NCBI RefSeq assembly: GCF_013315695.1
Contig: NZ_CP054353.1
Strand: one strand, 5' to 3'
Length of the DNA stretch: 64,000 nucleotides
Origin: Escherichia coli
GTDB lineage: Bacteria > Pseudomonadota > Gammaproteobacteria > Enterobacterales > Enterobacteriaceae
The position numbers were made by a program, and so were the translations under genes. Of the stretch, positions 498 through 63,162 are shown in pieces (positions within the stretch are counted from its first letter, which is position 1; every line of letters begins with the position of its first letter). The notes below the pieces were generated by a model. That model did no database searches, was not told the origin of the DNA, and was given only the letters and a program-made list of their open reading frames with translations.

Positions 498-631
498 CAA
501 CCAAACGACTCGGGGTGCCCTTCTGCGTGAAGGCTGAGAAATACCCGTATCACCTGATCTGGATAATGCCAGCGTAGGGAAGTCACGGACCACCAGGTCA
601 TTGCTTCTTCACGTTATGGCAGGAGCAAACT
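498..631 (+). promoter_or_regulatory. TPP (thiamine pyrophosphate) riboswitch, thi-box leader of thiM
   Basis: Conserved thi-box core CTGAGA...ACCTGATCTGGATAATGCCAGCGTAGGGAA immediately upstream of thiM start with RBS GGAG; matches the known thiM riboswitch from memory. Confidence 0.85.
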
Positions 632-1420: not shown

Positions 1421-2217
1421 AACGAATTAACGCTCTGACGATTGCCGGTACTGATCCGAGTGGTGGTGCGGGGATTCAGGCCGATCTTAAAACCTTCTCG
1501 GCACTTGGCGCTTATGGTTGCTCAGTTATTACTGCACTGGTGGCGCAAAATACCCGTGGCGTACAGTCGGTGTATCGCATTGAGCCTGATTTTGTCGCCG
1601 CCCAGCTCGATTCGGTGTTCAGTGATGTGCGAATCGACACCACTAAAATCGGTATGTTGGCGGAAACCGATATTGTTGAAGCGGTGGCAGAACGGTTGCA
1701 ACGTTATCAGATCCAAAACGTGGTACTCGACACCGTTATGCTGGCAAAAAGCGGCGACCCGCTGCTTTCACCTTCGGCGGTTGCTACGCTGCGCAGTCGA
1801 TTATTGCCACATGTTTCATTAATAACGCCAAACTTGCCCGAAGCAGCCGCCTTGCTCGACGCGCCACACGCGCGCACCGAACAGGAAATGCTGGAACAAG
1901 GGCGATCGCTGTTGGCGATGGGCTGTGGCGCAGTGCTAATGAAAGGTGGTCATCTGGATGATGAGCAAAGCCCGGACTGGCTGTTTACTCGTGAGGGGGA
2001 ACAACGGTTTACCGCACCGCGCATTATGACCAAAAACACTCACGGCACTGGTTGTACGCTCTCTGCGGCGTTGGCTGCACTGCGCCCGCGCCATACAAAC
2101 TGGGCTGACACCGTACAGGAGGCAAAAAGCTGGCTTTCATCGGCGTTAGCCCAGGCCGACACGCTGGAAGTTGGTCACGGTATTGGTCCGGTTCACCACT
2201 TCCACGCCTGGTGGTGA
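1417..2217 (+). CDS. thiD: Hydroxymethylpyrimidine/phosphomethylpyrimidine kinase
   Basis: 266-aa ORF recognised as ThiD (PfkB-like kinase); translationally coupled to thiM. Confidence 0.9.
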
Positions 2218-2272
2218 GCACCGTACTATAGCTGCTTTGGTGATTGTCAGCCTTTGGCGCTGACATTCAGGG

Positions 2273-3100
2273 ATGAAACCAATGCAGCTGAGAATCACCA
2301 GTCGAAAAAAATTCACCGCTTTATTATGCGCTCTTGGGCTAATTTCCATCGTTGCAATTTATCCGCGTCAGACGGTGAATTTTTTCTATTCGACAGCAAT
2401 TCAGATTAAAGACTACATCCACTTCTACGGTTATCGCCCGGTCAAATCTTTTGCTATTCGCATTCCTGCCAGTTACACCATTCATGGTATTGATGTTTCA
2501 CGCTGGCAGGAGCGAATCGACTGGCAGCGGGTGGCAAAAATGCGCGATAACGGTATTCGCTTACAATTTGCCTTTATTAAGGCGACGGAAGGCGAAAAGC
2601 TGGTGGACCCCTATTTTTCGCGTAACTGGCAACTAAGCCGCGAAAATGGCCTGCTGCGCGGGGCGTATCATTATTTTTCCCCGTCGGTATCCGCTTCAGT
2701 TCAGGCGAGATTATTTCTGCAAACGGTGGATTTCTCACAAGGCGATTTCCCTGCCGTGCTGGACGTAGAAGAACGGGGAAAATTATCGGCAAAAGAATTA
2801 CGCAAGCGGGTAAGTCAGTGGCTAAAAATGGTCGAAAAAAGTACGGGGAAAAAGCCGATTATTTACTCAGGAGCCGTTTTTTATCACACGAATCTGGCGG
2901 GCTATTTCAATGAATATCCGTGGTGGGTGGCTCACTACTATCAACGTCGTCCGGACAATGACGGCATGGCCTGGCGCTTCTGGCAGCATTCCGACCGTGG
3001 ACAGGTCGATGGCATTAATGGTCCGGTGGATTTTAATGTGTTTAATGGCACAGAGGAGGAGTTGCAGGGATTCGTTGATGGGATTAAAGAAACGCCTTAA
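2273..3100 (+). CDS. yegX: Glycoside hydrolase family 25 (lysozyme-like) protein
   Basis: 275-aa ORF with N-terminal hydrophobic segment; position after thiD matches K-12 yegX. Start codon uncertain (possibly a few codons downstream). Confidence 0.75.
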   Translation: MKPMQLRITSRKKFTALLCALGLISIVAIYPRQTVNFFYSTAIQIKDYIHFYGYRPVKSFAIRIPASYTIHGIDVSRWQERIDWQRVAKMRDNGIRLQFAFIKATEGEKLVDPYFSRNWQLSRENGLLRGAYHYFSPSVSASVQARLFLQTVDFSQGDFPAVLDVEERGKLSAKELRKRVSQWLKMVEKSTGKKPIIYSGAVFYHTNLAGYFNEYPWWVAHYYQRRPDNDGMAWRFWQHSDRGQVDGINGPVDFNVFNGTEEELQGFVDGIKETP

Positions 3101-3151: not shown

Positions 3152-3898
3152 ATGGAACAAGCGCATACCCAGCTGATTGCCCAACTGAACGAACGTATTT
3201 TAGCGGCGGATAACACGCCGCTTTATATTAAGTTTGCCGAAACGGTAAAAAATGCCGTGCGCAGCGGGGTGCTGGAGCATGGCAATATTTTGCCCGGTGA
3301 GCGTGATTTAAGTCAGTTAACCGGCGTTTCGCGCATTACGGTGCGCAAGGCGATGCAGGCGCTGGAAGAAGAGGGCGTGGTGACGCGTTCGCGTGGTTAC
3401 GGCACGCAGATCAACAACATCTTCGAATACTCGCTGAAAGAAGCGCGGGGGTTTTCTCAGCAGGTGGTATTGCGCGGGAAAAAGCCCGATACGCTATGGG
3501 TTAACAAGCGTGTCGTGAAATGTCCCGAAGAAGTCGCGCAACAGCTGGCGGTCGAAGCGGGAAGTGATGTCTTTTTGCTTAAGCGTATTCGCTATGTCGA
3601 TGAAGAGGCGGTATCGATTGAGGAATCGTGGGTTCCGGCGCATTTAATTCATGATGTTGATGCCATCGGAATTTCTCTTTATGACTACTTCCGCAGCCAG
3701 CACATTTACCCACAACGTACGCGTTCCCGCGTTAGCGCCCGGATGCCGGATGCCGAGTTTCAGTCACATATTCAGTTAGATAGCAAAATACCGGTGCTGG
3801 TGATCAAGCAAGTGGCGCTTGACCAACAGCAACGGCCTATTGAGTACAGCATCAGCTACTGTCGCAGCGATCTATACGTTTTTGTGTGCGAGGAGTAG
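3152..3898 (+). CDS. yegW: GntR-family transcriptional regulator
   Basis: 248-aa ORF; N-terminal winged-HTH of GntR/HutC type (ILPGERDLSQLTGVSRITVRKA). Confidence 0.8.
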   Translation: MEQAHTQLIAQLNERILAADNTPLYIKFAETVKNAVRSGVLEHGNILPGERDLSQLTGVSRITVRKAMQALEEEGVVTRSRGYGTQINNIFEYSLKEARGFSQQVVLRGKKPDTLWVNKRVVKCPEEVAQQLAVEAGSDVFLLKRIRYVDEEAVSIEESWVPAHLIHDVDAIGISLYDYFRSQHIYPQRTRSRVSARMPDAEFQSHIQLDSKIPVLVIKQVALDQQQRPIEYSISYCRSDLYVFVCEE

Positions 3899-4837
3899 TT
3901 CCTCGCGCGTTGGCGCACAATCACCGCCCCGATGCCCGACAACCCACGACGCCACTGCATTGCCCAGTAATACGGCATCCGCCAGTGGCAGACCAGAGGC
4001 CAGCCCGGCAAGTACGCCGCCGGCATGACTGTCGCCCGCCCCAATGGTGTCTACAACTTGCGTTGGAAATGCCGGAATGCAGCCAGAAGCGTCGTTGCTG
4101 AAATACCATGCGCCCTCTTTATCGAGACGAATGATCAACGGCGCGGCAAATTTCTCCTGCCATTGCTTGCCTAGTGTTGTTATCTCTGCGGATAGAGCAA
4201 AACGTTCGGCGGCAATCTCAGCCTCCTGACGATTGAGTGACACTAAAGGTCGACAGGCCATGATCCGCGCCAGTAATACATCCGGGATATCGCCAATACG
4301 TGGGCCAAAATCGATAAACGGCGTCACGTCTTGCAGCTTTTCCAGCCATTCCACTAACAATTCGCCGCAGGGCGAGGCCAGTTGATAACCGGAAAAATAG
4401 AGCAGGCTGCCAGGCGCAACGGTTAATCGCGCCAGCCACTGGCGATTCCACTGATTTTCCACACCGCTGAATGACATAAAAGTGCGTTCGCCATCCGGCT
4501 CAACCAGCGCCAGACACCAGCCGTTATCACCTTCGGCGTTATCGATCAGGCTGATTAAGTCCTCTTTTGCCATCCGGTTGCGAATAATCTCCGCCCACAC
4601 CCCCTGACCGAGCGGCAAGGCATTACCCGCTTCGATGCCGAGGCGCTTTAATGCCACGGCAATATTCAGTGCACAGCCGCCAACGTTAACGCTCTGCTGT
4701 TTCAGTTCGATATCGCACCCACGCCAGGGGAGGGCATAAGCGTCGGCGATCACATCAATGACCGCCGCGCCGACGACCATCACCGGCTGACGCGTGGCTA
4801 ATTCAGGCAGCAGCGTGTGTAATCGAGCGCCGCTCAT
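3872..4837 (-). CDS. yegV: PfkB-family sugar kinase
   Basis: 321-aa ORF with ribokinase/PfkB-type motifs (DTIGAGD); convergent with and overlapping yegW by 27 nt. Confidence 0.8.
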   Translation of the reverse strand: MSGARLHTLLPELATRQPVMVVGAAVIDVIADAYALPWRGCDIELKQQSVNVGGCALNIAVALKRLGIEAGNALPLGQGVWAEIIRNRMAKEDLISLIDNAEGDNGWCLALVEPDGERTFMSFSGVENQWNRQWLARLTVAPGSLLYFSGYQLASPCGELLVEWLEKLQDVTPFIDFGPRIGDIPDVLLARIMACRPLVSLNRQEAEIAAERFALSAEITTLGKQWQEKFAAPLIIRLDKEGAWYFSNDASGCIPAFPTQVVDTIGAGDSHAGGVLAGLASGLPLADAVLLGNAVASWVVGHRGGDCAPTREELLLAHKNV

Positions 4838-15572: not shown

Positions 15573-15677
15573 AACCGCGGGCCAGCGTGATGCTGGCCCG
15601 GTATTGTGCAAAACAGATCATTCACCAATGGTCCCCCTTCGTTTACACTAGCCACAATTGAATATGGGTAAATGACG

Positions 15678-16451
15678 ATGAATTCATTCGAGCGAAGGAA
15701 TAAGATCATCCAATTAGTGAATGAACAGGGAACCGTGCTTGTTCAGGATCTGGCGGGAGTATTTGCTGCCTCGGAAGCGACAATCCGTGCCGATTTGCGC
15801 TTTCTCGAACAAAAAGGCGTGGTTACGCGCTTTCATGGCGGTGCGGCGAAAATAATGTCCGGTAATAGTGAAACCGAGACCCAGGAAGTCGGGTTTAAAG
15901 AGCGATTTCAGCTCGCCAGCGCGCCAAAAAACAGAATAGCGCAGGCGGCAGTCAAAATGATCCACGAAGGGATGACCGTTATTCTCGACAGCGGAAGTAC
16001 GACAATGCTTATCGCCGAAGGATTAATGACCGCCAAAAATATCACGGTGATTACCAACAGTCTCCCGGCAGCATTTGCCCTTTCCGAAAATAAAGACATT
16101 ACTCTGGTCGTCTGCGGTGGCACGGTCCGCCATAAAACGCGCTCGATGCATGGCTCCATTGCTGAGCGTTCATTGCAGGATATTAATGCCGATTTAATGT
16201 TTGTCGGTGCTGATGGTATTGATGCGGTTAATGGTATTACGACCTTTAATGAAGGCTATTCGATTAGCGGGGCGATGGTCACAGCCGCAAATAAAGTGAT
16301 TGCCGTTCTCGATTCATCGAAATTTAATCGTCGCGGTTTTAATCAGGTACTGCCAATCGAAAAAATTGACATTATTATTACCGATGATGCTGTGTCTGAG
16401 GTGGATAAACTGGCATTGCAGAAGACACGGGTAAAATTAATTACGGTGTAG
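15678..16451 (+). CDS. gatR: DeoR-family repressor of the gat operon, apparently intact
   Basis: ORF 15672..16451 (259 aa) uninterrupted; N-terminal DeoR HTH and C-terminal sugar-phosphate-binding domain. Start codon choice uncertain. Confidence 0.8.
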   Translation: MNSFERRNKIIQLVNEQGTVLVQDLAGVFAASEATIRADLRFLEQKGVVTRFHGGAAKIMSGNSETETQEVGFKERFQLASAPKNRIAQAAVKMIHEGMTVILDSGSTTMLIAEGLMTAKNITVITNSLPAAFALSENKDITLVVCGGTVRHKTRSMHGSIAERSLQDINADLMFVGADGIDAVNGITTFNEGYSISGAMVTAANKVIAVLDSSKFNRRGFNQVLPIEKIDIIITDDAVSEVDKLALQKTRVKLITV

Positions 16452-16532: not shown

Positions 16533-17432
16533 TTAACGCAATAATGGACAATCTGGTGGTAATCGACAACGCAACGCCGCCGGAAGTATTTCAATATGGA
16601 AGTTTTGCCCACTCAACGGTTCGCCATCAAGATTAAAAGTGATTTCGTGTGGGGCTTGTATATCAAACCACGACGAAGCGCCTTCGATAATATTCGGGTT
16701 ATCTTCGTCAGATTTTAAGGTTGATACGAGAGCCGGAAGAATTTCATCGCCGGTAAAAATGCGCAGTTGCAGCAAGCCATCGTTAATTAACGCGTTCGGG
16801 CACAATTGCTGACCGCCACCGGCCTGACGCCCGTTACCAATACCAATGACCAGGGCGTCACCTTGCCAGTGAAAGTTTTCACCGCGGATTTCACAACGGT
16901 CCGGTTGCAGAGTATCCATGCGCATTAAGCCATGAATGATGTAAGAGACGCCACCCAGCGCGGCTTTTAATTTTTCCGGCGTTTCTGTGGTAATACGCGT
17001 CCCAAATCCGCCTGTCGCCATATTAATAAAACAGGTTTGTTTGTTGACCTGCGCTATATCTATCGCAATGGCGTTACCGGCAATTGCCAGTTTCAGCGCC
17101 TTATCCAGTGCCTCAGGAATCCCTACACTGGTGGCAAAATCATTGGCGGTTCCTAATGGCAAAATTCCCAGCGCGGGTATGTCATCCCCCTCACACTGAA
17201 TCAACGCCGTAGAAACTTCATTAATGGTGCCATCGCCACCACCGGCAATCACCGTTGCGACGCCCAACTTCCGGGCCTCCTCTACATATCGTGCGGCATC
17301 GCCTTTCTCCCAGGTGACCCGCACATGGATCGTCATTCCTTCCTCACGCAACAGCATAATTGCTTCGCGCAGGGGTAGATTGTCAGTACTTTTGCCATTA
17401 AGAATCAGTAAGCTGGCGGGAAATTCTGCCAT
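16533..17432 (-). CDS. yegS: Lipid kinase (diacylglycerol kinase catalytic domain family)
   Basis: 299-aa ORF with DAGK_cat motifs (GGDGT); K-12-like synteny. Confidence 0.85.
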
Positions 17433-17846
17433 GATCGTATGTGCCTTTATGATTGGTCTGTAGATAGTGTAGAGCAGAAAAGAAAAGGTAGAGTCAGAAC
17501 AGGATGAAAGTCGGAGGATAAAAAGTCAGTTCAAGTATGGAAGATTCAGTGGTTACCACCAGGAGCTTGCAATGGGGACAGCGAATACTAACGGCAGCCA
17601 CCGATAAATTTCAAAAAAGAGCATATACCTAATATTCAACTAAACAGTGGCATCTTCAATATACTATTAAAAATATATTAACCCCCCCATGGGGTTACCC
17701 GGAAGGGCATCCGTGTCTGTAATTCCTACTTATGTAGGAAATGTTGTACAGAACATTTATTATAATCCTATTCAAATATAATAATCATGCCATTATTATA
17801 TTTAAACACCAGAGCGTGTCGTTGGTATTTAATGGGGGAAGGTAAG

Positions 17847-18164
17847 ATGAAAAAGATAGCTGCTATATCATTAATTAGTGTTTTTCTTATGTCTGGTTGT
17901 GCTGTGCATAATGATGAGACAAGTATCGGTAAATTTGGCCTTGCATATAAAAGTAATATTCAGCGTAAACTCGATAACCAATACTACACCGAAGCCGAAG
18001 CTTCTTTAGCCAGGGGCAGAATTTCTGGTGCAGAAAATATAGTAAAAAATGATGCAGCTCATTTCTGTGTTACTCAGGGAAAAAAAATGCAGATAGTTGA
18101 CCTGAAGACAGAAGGTGCAGGATTACATGGCGTCGCTCGTCTGACATTCAAATGTGGAGAGTGA
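17847..18164 (+). CDS. yegR: Small lipoprotein
   Basis: Start placed at MKKIAAISLISVFLMSGC (lipobox LMSGC) within ORF 17787..18164; 105 aa. Confidence 0.7.
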   Translation: MKKIAAISLISVFLMSGCAVHNDETSIGKFGLAYKSNIQRKLDNQYYTEAEASLARGRISGAENIVKNDAAHFCVTQGKKMQIVDLKTEGAGLHGVARLTFKCGE

Positions 18165-18324
18165 GAATATTTTTTGGTAAGCGTCAAATATGCGCGTTCT
18201 GGCTGTGCGTAGCCGGAACCTGTGGGAGCACGATGCCGATAAGTGAAAGGCATCGTGCTATGAAGGAGGATTCTATCGATGTGGTCAATGGAAGATGGTT
18301 ACCAGGATACGACGGCTTATGCAT

Positions 18325-18411
18325 AAAAAATAAGCCCGTGTAAGGGAGATTACACAGGCTAAGGAGGTGGTTCCTGGTACAGCTAGCATTTTATGGGTTA
18401 TGTTTTTCAGC
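18325..18411 (-). ncRNA. cyaR: CyaR (RyeE) Hfq-dependent small RNA
   Basis: Minus-strand sequence GCTGAAAAACATAACCCATAAAATGCTAGCTGTACCAGGAACCACCTCCTTAGCCTGTGTAATCTCCCTTACACGGGCTTATTTTTT matches CyaR as I recall it, including the terminal hairpin and U-run. Confidence 0.85.
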
Positions 18412-18495
18412 GAAACGGATGATAACCTTAATAAATGCAGCTGTATGTGATCGGTTTCTAAGAATTTTCCATCCGGGAAAAATAATCGAAATTAA

Positions 18496-19857
18496 TCACT
18501 TACCGTGGGGGTTACGCGTGGTTTCCCCGGAGAAATTACGCATCAGCAGCGCGTAATTTAGCTCAAGATCCTGCGGGACCGGGATCCACACAGTATAACC
18601 ATCGCCTGGTGCGACCGGCATTGCTTCGCCTTTGGCGTTTTCCATATGCTCAAGGGTAAAGTTAATGTTCCCTTGCGGCGTCATCAGCTCAAGGCTGTCG
18701 CCAACGGAGAATTTATTTTTCACCGCTACCGCCGCGAGGTCGCCCTTGCGCTCACCGGTAAACTCACCAACAAACTGCTGGCGGTCAGAAACTGAATAAC
18801 CGTATTCGTAGTTCTGATAATCGTCGTGAGTATGACGACGCAGGAAACCTTCGGTATAGCCACGATGCGCCAGACCTTCCAGAGTTTCCAGCAGGCTGGT
18901 ATCGAATGGTTTTCCCGCAGCTGCGTCATCGATAGCTTTACGGTAAACCTGCGCGGTGCGTGCGCAATAGTAGAAAGATTTTGTACGACCTTCGATTTTC
19001 AGCGAATGCACGCCCATTTTGGTCAGGCGTTCAACGTGGGCGATAGCGCGCAGATCTTTCGAGTTCATGATGTAAGTGCCGTGCTCATCTTCAAACGCAG
19101 TCATATACTCGCCCGGACGCTGAGCTTCTTCGATCATAAACACTTTGTCGGTTGGCGCGCCGATACCCAGCGTCGGCTCAACATTTTGCACCGGAATCGG
19201 CTCGTACTTATGTACGATGTTGCCAACATCATCTTCTTTCCCTTCCTGGACGTTGTACTCCCAGCGGCAGGCGTTGGTGCAGGTGCCCTGGTTCGGGTCG
19301 CGCTTGTTGATATAGCCAGAGAGCAGGCAGCGACCGGAGTAGGCCATGCACAGCGCGCCGTGAACGAAGATTTCGATCTCCATATCCGGCACCTGATTGC
19401 GGATCTCTTCAATCTCTTCCAGCGACAGCTCGCGAGAGAGGATCACGCGGGTCAGGCCCATTTGCTGCCAGAATTTCACCGTCGCCCAGTTCACGGCGTT
19501 AGCCTGCACCGAGAGGTGGATCGGCATTTCAGGGAAGTGCTCGCGCACCAGCATAATCAGCCCTGGATCGGACATAATCAGCGCATCCGGCCCCATCTCC
19601 ACCACCGGTTTCAGGTCACGGATAAAGGTTTTCAGCTTGGCGTTGTGCGGTGCAATGTTGACCACGACATAAAACTTTTTCCCCAGCGCGTGGGCTTCAT
19701 TGATGCCGAGCTGAAGATTTTCGTGGTTGAATTCGTTGTTGCGCACACGCAGGGAGTAACGTGGCTGGCCCGCATAAACAGCATCTGCGCCATAAGCGAA
19801 AGCGTAACGCATATTTTTCAGCGTTCCCGCCGGGGAAAGGAGTTCCGGTTTAAACAT
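18496..19857 (-). CDS. yegQ: Peptidase U32 family protein
   Basis: 453-aa ORF recognised as YegQ; adjacent to cyaR as in K-12. Confidence 0.85.
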   Translation of the reverse strand: MFKPELLSPAGTLKNMRYAFAYGADAVYAGQPRYSLRVRNNEFNHENLQLGINEAHALGKKFYVVVNIAPHNAKLKTFIRDLKPVVEMGPDALIMSDPGLIMLVREHFPEMPIHLSVQANAVNWATVKFWQQMGLTRVILSRELSLEEIEEIRNQVPDMEIEIFVHGALCMAYSGRCLLSGYINKRDPNQGTCTNACRWEYNVQEGKEDDVGNIVHKYEPIPVQNVEPTLGIGAPTDKVFMIEEAQRPGEYMTAFEDEHGTYIMNSKDLRAIAHVERLTKMGVHSLKIEGRTKSFYYCARTAQVYRKAIDDAAAGKPFDTSLLETLEGLAHRGYTEGFLRRHTHDDYQNYEYGYSVSDRQQFVGEFTGERKGDLAAVAVKNKFSVGDSLELMTPQGNINFTLEHMENAKGEAMPVAPGDGYTVWIPVPQDLELNYALLMRNFSGETTRNPHGK

Positions 19858-19959: not shown

Positions 19960-20256
19960 TTAGCTCCAGTGTAAATGTCTGGAGGCGTCCTGGTTTTGGT
20001 TAAGGATACGAATGACGATAATTTCCTCTGGCGATTGCAGGAAATAAATTACGTGGCGTTCAAAAGGAAGAACAAAAATACCTTCGCCTAATTCAGGTCT
20101 GGGCGTACCTATATTATTGTTACTCAGAATCTGGAGAACGTCTGAAAGATGTTCCACATATCTGTCGGCTTGTGGTTCGCCGAAATGGTGATAGCTGTAA
20201 TACCAGATGCCTTCTAAATCCTCATTGGCTTTTGGCATGAGTTTTATAGTACGCAC
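19960..20256 (-). CDS. ParE-like type II toxin (RelE/ParE superfamily)
   Basis: 98-aa ORF directly downstream of a ParD-like ORF with a 1-nt gap; C-terminal ParE-like signature (IIVIRILNQNQD). Confidence 0.65.
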   Translation of the reverse strand: MRTIKLMPKANEDLEGIWYYSYHHFGEPQADRYVEHLSDVLQILSNNNIGTPRPELGEGIFVLPFERHVIYFLQSPEEIIVIRILNQNQDASRHLHWS

Positions 20257-20257
20257 A

Positions 20258-20509
20258 TTATTTCCTTATCCCTGCTTTCACCTTCCGTAAAAACGCGTCC
20301 TTTTCCCACGGCTGAGCTTCACCACTACTCAACCCTTCAGCGAGCATGTCACGTAACGCTTGCAGGCGAGACTCTGCTTGCTTTTCTCGAAGTAAGCGCA
20401 GCGACTCACGGATCACTTCGCTTTGGGTGCGATAGTCGCCGGATTCAATTAAGGACTCGATAAATTCACGCAACTCATCGCCGAGATCAACCGTCATCGT
20501 TCTGGCCAT
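20258..20509 (-). CDS. ParD-like antitoxin (ribbon-helix-helix)
   Basis: Start placed at MARTMTVDLGDELREFIESLIESGDYRTQSEVIRESLRLL (about 83 aa); RHH fold typical of ParD/CopG antitoxins. Confidence 0.65.
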   Translation of the reverse strand: MARTMTVDLGDELREFIESLIESGDYRTQSEVIRESLRLLREKQAESRLQALRDMLAEGLSSGEAQPWEKDAFLRKVKAGIRK

Positions 20510-20762
20510 TTTACACCCGCCTGTAAGTAAAAATCTTACATCAGTGTATTTCATAAACCGGATAGCGTCACGAAAGTATTAGAAGATATTTTGGCATATG
20601 AACATGTTCAGGAAGATAAGTATGGGATGGTAAACAAAGAAAGCACAACGAGTGCTCGTCAGTGCCCACTATTTTAATGGCGGAGGTTAATCTTAATTAT
20701 CAATAACTAAGAGTTGTTTTGATATAAAGCCGGACGCCAACAACCCACGCCCGGCATCGTAA

Positions 20763-23408: not shown

Positions 23409-24820
23409 TGCGCGCTCCTTTTTCGCCGCGAAATAGCGACATTTTGATGCGTATCGTTCGGCACTCTGGCAAAGATGAACGCCGGAAGGGCGATGATAAA
23501 CGCCATGCTAAGCCAGGTGTACATAAAGACGGTTTGTGTGGTGCCGCTGTCGACGCTGACATGCTGTGAACCAAAAAGTCCCAGCAACAGCCCGGCGATA
23601 GTGACGCCGATACTCATCGACAATTGCATAATCATCGACAGCAGGCTGTTTCCGCTGCTCGCCAGATTGTCCGGGAGATCTTTCAGCGTCAGGGTGTTCA
23701 TAGAGGAGAAACGCGTCGAGTTGACCATCCCTTGTAAAAACAGGACGAACGGCAAAACGTAGTACCAGCCCAGCAGAGCGGTAGTCATAAACAGCAGGGT
23801 GACCAGCGACAGGCCCAGCGTGGTCGCCACCAGTACCCGACGGTAGCCAAAGCGATTCACCACCTGCACTACAATTCGCTTCATTCCCATGCTGCCGAGC
23901 ACCATCGGGATCATCATCAGTCCGGCATGGAACGGCGAGAAACCGAGGCCAATCTGTAAGAAAACCGGTGTCATAAAGGGCAACATGCCGCTACCGATAC
24001 GTCCGGCAAAACTCCCCGCCAGACCCAGCGAAAAGGTACGAGTACGGAACAGTTTCAGACTGAACAGGGCGCGGTTGTTATTTCTGGCGTGCAGCAGATA
24101 AAGCACCAGTGCCACCACGCCAACTGCGACCAGGCCAGCAATCGCCAGCGGCGATAAACCTGTACCTTTACTGCCGTCCAGCGCCAGGGTTAATACCGCC
24201 ATGCCAACCGCCAGCAATAAAAAGCCGGAGAGATCAAAGCGCCGCGTCTGCATGGTGTAGTTCGGCATTAACATCAGTGTGGCGATCGCACCGATAATCC
24301 CCACCGGAATGTTGATCAAAAAGATCCAGTGCCAGGAGGCGTACTCCACCAGCAGGCCGCCGAGCGCCGGACCGAGCAGCGGCCCGACCTGACCGGGTAA
24401 CGTGACAAAGGTCATCGCCGCCATATATTGCTCGCGCGGTACGATTTTCATCACCGTCAACCTGCCGACCGGCACCATCATCGCACCGCCAACGCCCTGT
24501 AACGCGCGTGCCAGCAACAGTTCGTTCAGCGTGCCGGAAAGTGCGCAAAATAGTGAACCGAGAGTAAACAGCACGATGGCGGTAAAGAAAATATTGCGCA
24601 CGCCGACTTTGTCCGCCAGCCAGCCGCTGGCGGGCAGCATCACCGCCACGGTCAGCACATAAGAGACAATGACCATGTGCATATGCAACGGACTTTCCCC
24701 GAGGCTTTGCGCCATTGAGGGAAGGGCGGTGTTTACGATGGTGGTGTCCAGCGACTGCATAAAGAAGCCGAAAGCCACAATCCACAATTGCCAGCGGGTG
24801 CTGTCGGGAAGATCTGTCAT
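23405..24820 (-). CDS. mdtD: MFS transporter MdtD
   Basis: 471-aa 14-TM-like hydrophobic ORF between mdtC and baeS. Confidence 0.85.
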
Positions 24821-32496: not shown

Positions 32497-32640
32497 GAAA
32501 CGGGAAAGCCCCTCCCGAGGAAGGGGCCTTAAATAAGGAAAGGGTCATGATGAAGCTACTCATCATCGTGGTGCTCTTAGTGATTAGCTACCCTGCATAC
32601 TAAGACTACCAGGGCGGGGGAAACCCCGCTCTACCCTCAC
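32497..32640 (-). ncRNA. sibB: Sib-family antisense sRNA (antitoxin) covering the ibs ORF; ends approximate
   Basis: Inferred from the known ibs/sib arrangement; minus-strand hairpin (GCCCCT...AGGGGC at 32508..32527) followed by a U-rich tract would form its terminator. Confidence 0.5.
32547..32603 (+). CDS. ibsB: Ibs-family type I toxin peptide, 18 aa (MMKLLIIVVLLVISYPAY)
   Basis: Tiny hydrophobic ORF with RBS AAGGAAAGGG, inside the first of two about 325-bp tandem repeat units; A/B naming is tentative. Confidence 0.75.
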   Translation: MMKLLIIVVLLVISYPAY

Positions 32641-32825
32641 TCCTGAAATTATGCCTTCACGATAAGATTGTCAATCCGCAGGCTTTGTAGTCTGCGATCC
32701 TGCCAGCAAATATTCTTTGCGAGTCGTTACGGAATAATCACCGAGGAAACTATTTTGTTCACGCGTTAGCGATAGACTGCATTCAGGGCGAAAGGAGGTA
32801 AGCCGACGATTTCAGCGGGACGCTG

Positions 32826-32962
32826 AAACGGGAAACCCTCTCCCGGAGAAGAGGGCTTTTAATAAGGAAAGGGTTATGATGAAGCACGTCATCATACTGG
32901 TGATACTCTTAGTGATTAGCTTCCAGGCTTACTAAGAACACCAGGGGGAGGGGGAAACCTCT
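32826..32962 (-). ncRNA. sibA: Sib-family antisense sRNA (second copy); ends approximate
   Basis: Same architecture as the first unit; hairpin CCCTCT...AGAGGG at 32835..32855. Confidence 0.5.
32876..32935 (+). CDS. ibsA: Ibs-family type I toxin peptide, 19 aa (MMKHVIILVILLVISFQAY)
   Basis: Second tiny hydrophobic ORF in the second repeat unit with the same RBS context; A/B naming tentative. Confidence 0.75.
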   Translation: MMKHVIILVILLVISFQAY

Positions 32963-33155
32963 CCCTAACCCTCACTCCTGAAATTATGTCACTCCGCCCT
33001 TAGTGTCAATCGACGGCTCTCCGTTCTTGCGAGGCGAATAGCAAAATTTTCTGCGCCGCCGGGCCTAATTCTGAAAGTTTCTTCGTTTGCTCTTATTTCA
33101 TTATTGCAATCGGTATGATACCGGACCTCAATAATTCTCTAAGAAAGGATTTCTT

Positions 33156-48133: not shown

Positions 48134-48601
48134 AGTAAGTACAAAACCTATTCGTTGTATGACAAATGTCACAATTCGATCATGGATAAATCGGGGCAAA
48201 AATGCAATGTTGCAGCACTATTTATCTCATATTATTTGAGGGTAATAACCTCACATTATCCCTGAATTAAAAGTGGTAATAATAAAACATTATTTAAGAA
48301 ATATCGCATGTGGAGACACTATATTAAATATTGTCAACCTAAAGAAACTCCTAAAAACCATATTGAATGACACTTAATATAATTCTTAAAAATAGCCAAT
48401 TGCCGAATTGTTACCTTGCCTGCTATTCCGTTAGCTGTAACACTTCCTCCTGCATTATTGGAGAGCCAATATTCAATTACCATAATGTCACCTTATATTC
48501 GGAAGTTAATTTCCGCAATAACCCTTTCTCATCAACGACTGTATGTTGAGAGAGTTTTAAAAATTAAGCTAAATCAGTGTATTGGTAGCTAAAAAGCCAG
48601 G

Positions 48602-48613
48602 GGCGGTAGCGTG
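48602..48613 (+). promoter_or_regulatory. ops element (GGCGGTAGCGTG) within JUMPstart, RfaH-dependent antitermination site in the wza leader
   Basis: Exact ops core GGCGGTAGCGT about 180 bp upstream of wza start. Confidence 0.8.
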
Positions 48614-63061: not shown

Positions 63062-63162
63062 CAGTTGCATAATCAACCGGATTAATTCTTCGGTAAATAA
63101 CGACAAAAACAAAATTGGCCGTTTCGGTCAGGGCCAACTATTGCCTGAAAAAGGGTAAAGAC

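Follow-up and report, generated by a model that had tools for sequence, protein, structure and literature searches.

CyaR, a small RNA of E. coli, binds Hfq and represses ompX, nadE, luxS, yqaE, yobF, and hdeD by means of its seed; its transcription is activated by cAMP-CRP and is also influenced by CpxR and possibly by sigma-E (PMC5861431, PMC11795201). The gene, alternatively named ryeE, was recognized earlier as a phage target in E. coli (Bobay et al., PMC3603311), and this role of cyaR/ryeE is thus already part of the published record. At the cyaR RNA site, strain W carries a P2 prophage, K-12 carries ogr-D', and strain B carries P2*B, and the site is empty in Crooks (PMC3032704 Table 2). 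In the annotation of MG1655, 2167183-2167811 is assigned to the cryptic prophage PR-X (629 bp), an example of a relic at the attachment site of an RNA gene. P2-like prophages can also deliver cargo: the cdt-V operons of E. coli O157 are described as such, as far as the work by Svab et al. (2013) is reported in PMC5136569.

Here, we describe the cyaR locus in a 64,000-nt stretch of E. coli DNA (contig NZ_CP054353.1), which we refer to as the window. We are highly confident in a joint explanation for this locus, i.e., an intact cyaR gene with an empty P2 attB site, arranged as in the majority of E. coli genomes and followed by a block around yegR that is most likely an older relic. The evidence for yegR as older cargo is the only new element of this picture, and only a mildly new one; the remainder is known and ordinary.

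To begin with the RNA gene, the whole window was compared with Rfam 15 at gathering thresholds, and RF00112 (CyaR_RyeE) matched at 18413..18328 (-) with 100.7 bits (gathering score 47), E = 6.2e-19, and model positions 1-85/85. Together with the identity to MG1655, this defines cyaR (ryeE) as an 87-nt sRNA gene at 18325..18411 on the minus strand, 5' GCUGAAAAAC...GGGCUUAUUUUUU 3'. Its sequence, GCUGAAAAAC...CACGGGCUUAUUUUUU, is identical to MG1655 cyaR (b4438, NC_000913.3 2167114-2167200) at 87/87 positions. The element is an intact cyaR of the K-12 allele, and the agreement is far beyond chance. The RNA folds with -19.8 kcal/mol (z = -3.0 vs shuffles) into a 5' stem, a small seed hairpin, and the terminator. 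The seed hairpin (RNA nt 37-50; 18362..18375 (-)), which appears in both the MFE and the centroid fold, consists of an AGGA/UCCU stem and an ACCACC loop, and it contains the conserved C-rich anti-Shine-Dalgarno region GGAACCACCUCCUU, an invariant block of the Rfam consensus alignment. The Rho-independent terminator (18325..18360 (-)) was recovered by a terminator scan, by the fold, and in the Rfam structure line; according to the scan, it comprises an 11-bp stem at 18360..18333, followed by the T-run/U-tail TATTTTTT. A preliminary description made from the sequence alone had placed an 87-nt CyaR with its terminator on the minus strand between yegR and yegQ, and the Rfam score, the identity to MG1655, and the stem bear this out, as do the positions of yegQ/trhP (18496..19857 (-)) and yegR (17847-18164 (+)) in the ORF list and in RefSeq. 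The conserved upstream neighbour yegQ lies on the same strand as cyaR and ends 84 nt upstream of its 5' end.

The region upstream of cyaR equals MG1655 at 99/100 nt, with the sole difference at -100. Within the identical 99 nt, a candidate promoter can be read from the sequence at 18419..18461 (-). TATCAT at 18424..18419 may serve as the -10 element, and TTAGAAACCGATCACA at 18461..18446, centred near -42, is a candidate CRP site in a class II-like position; a CRP-like half-site, TCACA, is found near -42. If the mechanism described in the literature (PMC5861431, PMC11795201) applies, cAMP-CRP would activate this promoter. The 87-nt RNA would then contact Hfq through its terminator and U-tail, and its C-rich seed GGAACCACCUCC would pair with the ribosome-binding regions of ompX, nadE, luxS, yqaE, hdeD, and other mRNAs, which would block translation and/or lead to mRNA decay. 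K-12 and the window have in common the 87 nt of CyaR, the promoter region, the yegQ/trhP neighbour, the seed hairpin, and the terminator, and they diverge only past the terminator. As both gene and promoter correspond to the K-12 reference, the consequences for CyaR biology are small.

The 3' end of the gene coincides with a phage attachment site. A sensitive blastn search of 18290-18430 against 50,697 phage records revealed that positions 24355-24382 of phage P2 (AF063097 / NC_001895) equal 18324-18351 of the window, with 100% identity over 28 nt. In the P2 record, 24356-24382 carry the annotations attP and 'Int attP core' and lie between ogr and int. The corresponding 27-nt attB core in the window (18325..18351, AAAAAATAAGCCCGTGTAAGGGAGATT on the + strand) is formed by the last 27 nt of cyaR, i.e., by the descending half of the terminator stem and the T-run. 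Judged by this sequence identity, the CyaR terminator doubles as the P2 attachment site, which is unoccupied in the window, and we regard a cyaR gene with an empty P2 attB at its 3' end as practically certain. In earlier work on P2, the preferred attachment site was named 'locI', and we take the cyaR site to be the same. Integration of P2 would duplicate the core and thereby regenerate the 3' end of the sRNA, which would explain why the remnant-bearing K-12 and the window share the same CyaR sequence. An occupied counterpart is provided by strain FDAARGOS_1276: homology from the yegR side stops at window position 18351, and a site-specific integrase, a C-like repressor, cox, and P2 early genes follow, with int located 80 nt past the breakpoint. 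This strain carries a full P2-like prophage at exactly the cyaR core. The earlier characterization of the site as a known integration hotspot is thereby substantiated, both by the identity to the P2 attP core and by P2-like prophages at the exact point in other strains. P2-like prophages or their remnants occupy the cyaR/ryeE site in W, B, K-12, and FDAARGOS_1276, whereas the window is unoccupied, like E. coli Crooks and about 77% of the complete genomes. A perfect empty core predicts that the source strain would be open to P2 lysogeny at its preferred site.

In K-12, ogrK and a truncated 'phage late control D' pseudogene (yegZ) lie between yegR and cyaR, and the window lacks both. The preliminary description had placed these two K-12 genes next to cyaR and noted their absence here, and annotation and pairwise alignment agree with it on both points. 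By pairwise BLAST, window positions 17400-18342 correspond to 2100-3032 of the K-12 locus and 18317-19000 to 3636-4319; K-12 carries about 603 bp extra according to the alignment, so that the compact arrangement of the window is not found there. The additional K-12 DNA is bracketed by a partial direct repeat of the P2 core, TAAAAAATAAGCCCGTGTA, of which the yegR-side copy is truncated. The PR-X annotation of MG1655 stops before yegR. In K-12, PR-X thus precedes yegR, whereas in the window, yegR comes after a 160-bp spacer from cyaR, to which it is convergently oriented.

We then determined how common the empty site is. Of 5426 complete E. coli genomes, 4204 (77%) contain an uninterrupted match, covering at least 80% in a single place, to a 131-bp probe with the core at its centre (18270-18400). 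A second probe spanned the K-12-type junction, which leads from the chromosome to the truncated D'; it was contiguous in only 356/5426 genomes (6.6%), and the examples listed are the K-12 laboratory derivatives ER1709, CJ236, and JM109. In roughly 16% of the genomes, the site is interrupted by other DNA; the one case examined is the P2-like prophage of FDAARGOS_1276. In agreement with this, a search with 2.5 kb found at least 80% in one place in 4578 genomes, a number that includes joined pieces of the K-12 type. Isolates with the empty site are diverse and match the window at 95-100% identity. Most E. coli share this remnant-free, ordinary arrangement, and K-12 is the outlier; the window is thus not unusual in this respect. 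This has a corrective value, as the absence of ogrK and yegZ from other E. coli is not remarkable once K-12 is recognized as atypical at this position. Since 77% of the genomes share the remnant-free state and only 356 have the K-12-type junction, it is likely the pre-P2 state relative to K-12.

The frequencies also bear on the reverse polarity, in which the window would be derived: an ogrK-D' remnant or a full P2 prophage would once have been present and would have been lost, either precisely excised or deleted. Turnover of P2-like prophages at this site does occur, about 16% of the genomes carrying DNA other than the K-12 remnant there, and precise excision by Int/Cox restores a perfect core. 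However, the K-12 remnant has neither int nor cox and its yegR-side repeat is truncated, which precludes precise excision; furthermore, the K-12-type junction is limited to 356/5426 genomes, exemplified by K-12 laboratory strains, and the empty site is spread across diverse isolates at 95-100% identity. We consider such a loss highly improbable. A full prophage that was cleanly excised would leave no trace, and the description of the locus would be the same.

The window is free of P2 genes at this site. The yegR block (17520..18324; 805 bp) is AT-rich, with a GC content of 0.33-0.40 (lowest value 0.33) vs about 0.51 in the flanks, and is without counterpart in divergent Escherichia and in most Enterobacteriaceae. 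One edge of the block falls precisely where cyaR ends: the sequences of 'E. coli' E69 (L042), Escherichia sp. E1V33 (L060), and E. whittamii (L092) lose their homology to the window at 18325, the last base of the gene, and regain it at 17524. The distal breakpoint 17524 was also observed in E. albertii, and 17509 in Salmonella. At this other, yegS-proximal edge, we identified a decayed direct repeat of the att core (17520..17546). On the minus strand, i.e., the strand of cyaR, it reads AATCTTCCATACTTGAACTGACTTTTT (17546..17520) and matches the core AATCTCCCTTACACGGGCTTATTTTTT at 19/27 positions in the same orientation, part of the match being T-run. In the 64-kb window, searched on both strands, this is the sole match of at least 18/27 besides the true core, and 19/27 was reached in 0.27% of mononucleotide shuffles of the 892-nt interval (P = 0.0027). 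The decayed repeat lies 88 nt from the yegS match. Beyond the repeat, ATCCTCCGACTTTCATCC aligns with TGTACCACGACTTTCATCC, which follows the CyaR T-run in compact genomes, as would be expected if an element had entered by recombination within the core. We could recognize neither an integrase nor a phage gene nor an att arm in the block; its sole convincing ORF is yegR, and a distant-mode blastn search of the 805 bp against the 50,697 phage records returned only ON470606.1 and AY639599.1.

The breakpoints, the low GC content, and the decayed repeat suggest with good, if not full, confidence that the yegR block was left by an element that had once integrated at the cyaR att core; the lack of phage and integrase genes and the modest 19/27 match count against this. 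An older integrative element that used the same core would have left the 805-bp block behind, with one end at the last base of cyaR and the other at the decayed core. Compared with relics at RNA-gene attachment sites such as PR-X of K-12, the yegR block resembles them in its core-repeat bounds, its AT-richness, and its presence or absence between lineages; it differs in having neither a phage nor an integrase gene. In a subset of E. coli genomes, for example GN02050, DFS.1, and ZH063, an AT-rich insert of about 170 bp, corresponding to positions 1871-2041 of locus L002, directly follows the yegR stop codon (window position 18169) inside the block.

To place the block in a wider context, we scanned one genome per bacterial species for a CyaR core pattern and obtained at least 120 loci, all enterobacterial, in which the seed pattern is present by construction of the scan. 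The loci were typed by tblastn with YegQ, YegR, YegS, GatR, and YegP of the window and with Int and Ogr of P2; 108 of those listed had enough flanking sequence to be informative. In essentially all of the at least 120 loci, yegQ lies directly upstream of cyaR. The terminator stem differs among genera with its pairing potential kept (E. coli GCCUGUGU...ACACGGGC vs GCCUGCGU...ACGCAGGC in many others), and as a result of this variation, the exact 27/27 P2 core was found in only 7 of the at least 120 loci listed, most others reaching 24-26/27. The compact order yegQ-cyaR-yegS, in which yegS (a lipid kinase; 16533..17432 (-) in the window according to the ORF list and RefSeq) directly follows cyaR, was the most frequent type (63/108 informative loci), with yegS located about 80-100 nt from the CyaR 3' end. 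It includes Klebsiella, Raoultella, Kosakonia, many Enterobacter and Citrobacter, Atlantibacter, and Cedecea, and it occurs without yegR in the three divergent Escherichia lineages E69, E1V33, and E. whittamii as well. An insert of 0.15 to 5 kb precedes yegS in 27/108 loci, P2-like ogr or int adjoins cyaR in seven, and yegS was not reached within the flank in 11. By tblastn, YegR was not detected outside Escherichia among the loci listed. Nearly every E. coli genome sampled carries yegR.

For the loci with an insert, the best match to each locus' own core was sought between cyaR and yegS. In several of them, a distal core repeat was found 78-94 nt from the yegS match, compared to 88 nt in the window. 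The clearest example is E. albertii, in which a 3.4-kb insert ends in a distal repeat of 25/27 that lies 88 nt from the yegS match, as in the window. Further distal repeats were identified in Enterobacter sichuanensis (21/27), Pluralibacter (18/27), and Mangrovibacter phragmitis (18/27), and three additional insert loci had distal core matches of 16-17/27. The E. albertii insert encodes CdtA, CdtB, and CdtC (Pfam CDtoxinA, 2.5e-43 and 9e-35; Exo_endo_phos, 2e-14). In strain NBRC 107761 (L008), cdtA-cdtB-cdtC are located about 1.0-3.2 kb downstream of cyaR and before yegS, and neither P2 int nor ogr was detected at this cyaR locus by tblastn. The cdt operons known from P2-like prophages thus have a counterpart in E. 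albertii cdtABC, which sits in the cyaR slot with a 25/27 repeat. In Salmonella enterica subsp. diarizonae (L085), an SseK/NleB-family effector (2e-177) and a CesT-family chaperone are encoded 0.4-1.9 kb downstream of cyaR at a GC content of 0.38. The cyaR-yegS slot of this locus has no convincing distal core repeat (best 15/27), and the repeat signature is therefore not universal.

The comparison speaks to a simpler reading of the window, namely a pristine and never-invaded ancestral hotspot, with yegR-cyaR-yegQ and nothing in between. The site does lack P2 genes, its att core is perfect (27/27), and the arrangement is the majority state in E. coli. Nevertheless, in the majority of the other Enterobacteriaceae and in three divergent Escherichia lineages, yegR is missing and yegS comes right after cyaR; the yegR block is rich in AT, begins exactly at the att core, and has a decayed core repeat at its far end; and in other species, the slot holds different cargo that is framed by repeats in the same way. 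We therefore judge a pristine site to be unlikely; instead, the window probably shows an older invasion layer at the same hotspot. The wording 'ancestral, uninvaded' used in the preliminary description can be retained in its first sense, as the likely pre-P2 state (77% of the genomes vs 356 genomes), and fails in its second, as the yegR block probably represents an older layer of invasion.

The polarity of the yegR insertion follows from parsimony over the at least 120 loci, a sample that places E. fergusonii and some cryptic clades outside. Alternatively, the block could be ancestral to Escherichia, with E69, E1V33, and E. whittamii having lost it by recombination between core repeats and the 19/27 match reflecting either that history or chance. 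This alternative gains from a degraded block in the non-coli Escherichia L099, in which most of yegR is gone, from the ease of deletion between direct repeats, and from the fact that the Escherichia species were drawn from the at least 120 loci listed. On the other hand, the outgroups Klebsiella, Citrobacter, Kosakonia, Raoultella, Atlantibacter, and others are compact, and E. albertii and Salmonella have unrelated cargo in the same slot. A block flanked by att cores would still imply some earlier insertion, and chance is countered by P ~0.003 even before the exact position and orientation of the repeat are counted. We rate this alternative as quite doubtful. Under the preferred reading, i.e., an insertion of the block at the core, the degraded block of L099 indicates that the insertion is older than E. 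coli sensu stricto.

The slot on the 3' side of cyaR serves as a recurrent landing pad in which cargo persists longer than the element that brought it. Beyond this, we lean towards the broader view that the cyaR 3' end has been a long-lived, cargo-depositing hotspot throughout Enterobacteriaceae, at which one integrative element after another that used the terminator/att core would decay and yegR, cdtABC, or the SseK/NleB effector with its CesT-like chaperone would stay, so that yegR would be domesticated cargo. An origin as relic cargo would offer a rationale for the narrow distribution of yegR and for its lack of a phenotype, and it would tie yegR to the virulence cargo (cdtABC and the SseK/NleB effector) found in the same slot of sister species.

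According to the ORF list and RefSeq, yegR encodes a predicted lipoprotein of 105 aa with a signal peptide and the lipobox LMSGC. Its precomputed family, PF27694, is almost confined to Escherichia/Shigella and has no function assigned; a Pfam search of YegR yielded only a sub-threshold match to DUF333. Inactivation of yegR was without phenotype in chemostats (PMC3708739). Distant homologues were found in an IS-flanked region of Enterobacter sp. BIDMC 29 and on a metagenome contig; they are located neither at cyaR nor in prophages, and a donor element could not be identified from them. We also considered YegR as a phage gene, given a match to phrog_21109 (2e-72) and tblastn matches in two 'phage' records, and rejected this assignment, as the records are mis-bounded prophages; YegR is also not known to be a P2 gene. 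ON470606.1 (Escherichia phage vB_EcoM-720R8, partial) represents a P2-like prophage deposited together with host yegR, yegS, and gatR at 31.9-34.8 kb, and AY639599.1 is a 2.3-kb junction fragment. The host flank in ON470606.1 probably explains why YegR has a PHROG family of its own.

Regarding other features of the window, a ParE toxin (Pfam 6.9e-14) and a ParD antitoxin (7.3e-19) are encoded at 19960-20554 (-), between yegQ/trhP and yegP, a position at which K-12 has nothing. The islets described at the 'yegQ locus' of Salmonella (SAIDI-1) lie on this ParE/ParD side of yegQ and not on the cyaR side (PMC7400221). The gene gatR (15672-16451 (+)), which encodes the DeoR-family repressor of the galactitol operon, is intact in the window and split by IS3E in K-12. 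The Rfam scan further revealed, above the gathering score, two SIB antitoxin RNAs at 32532-32674 and 32861-33009 (-), a TPP riboswitch at 501-597 (+), a JUMPstart element at 48575-48613 (+), and an algC RNA at 63109-63158 (+).
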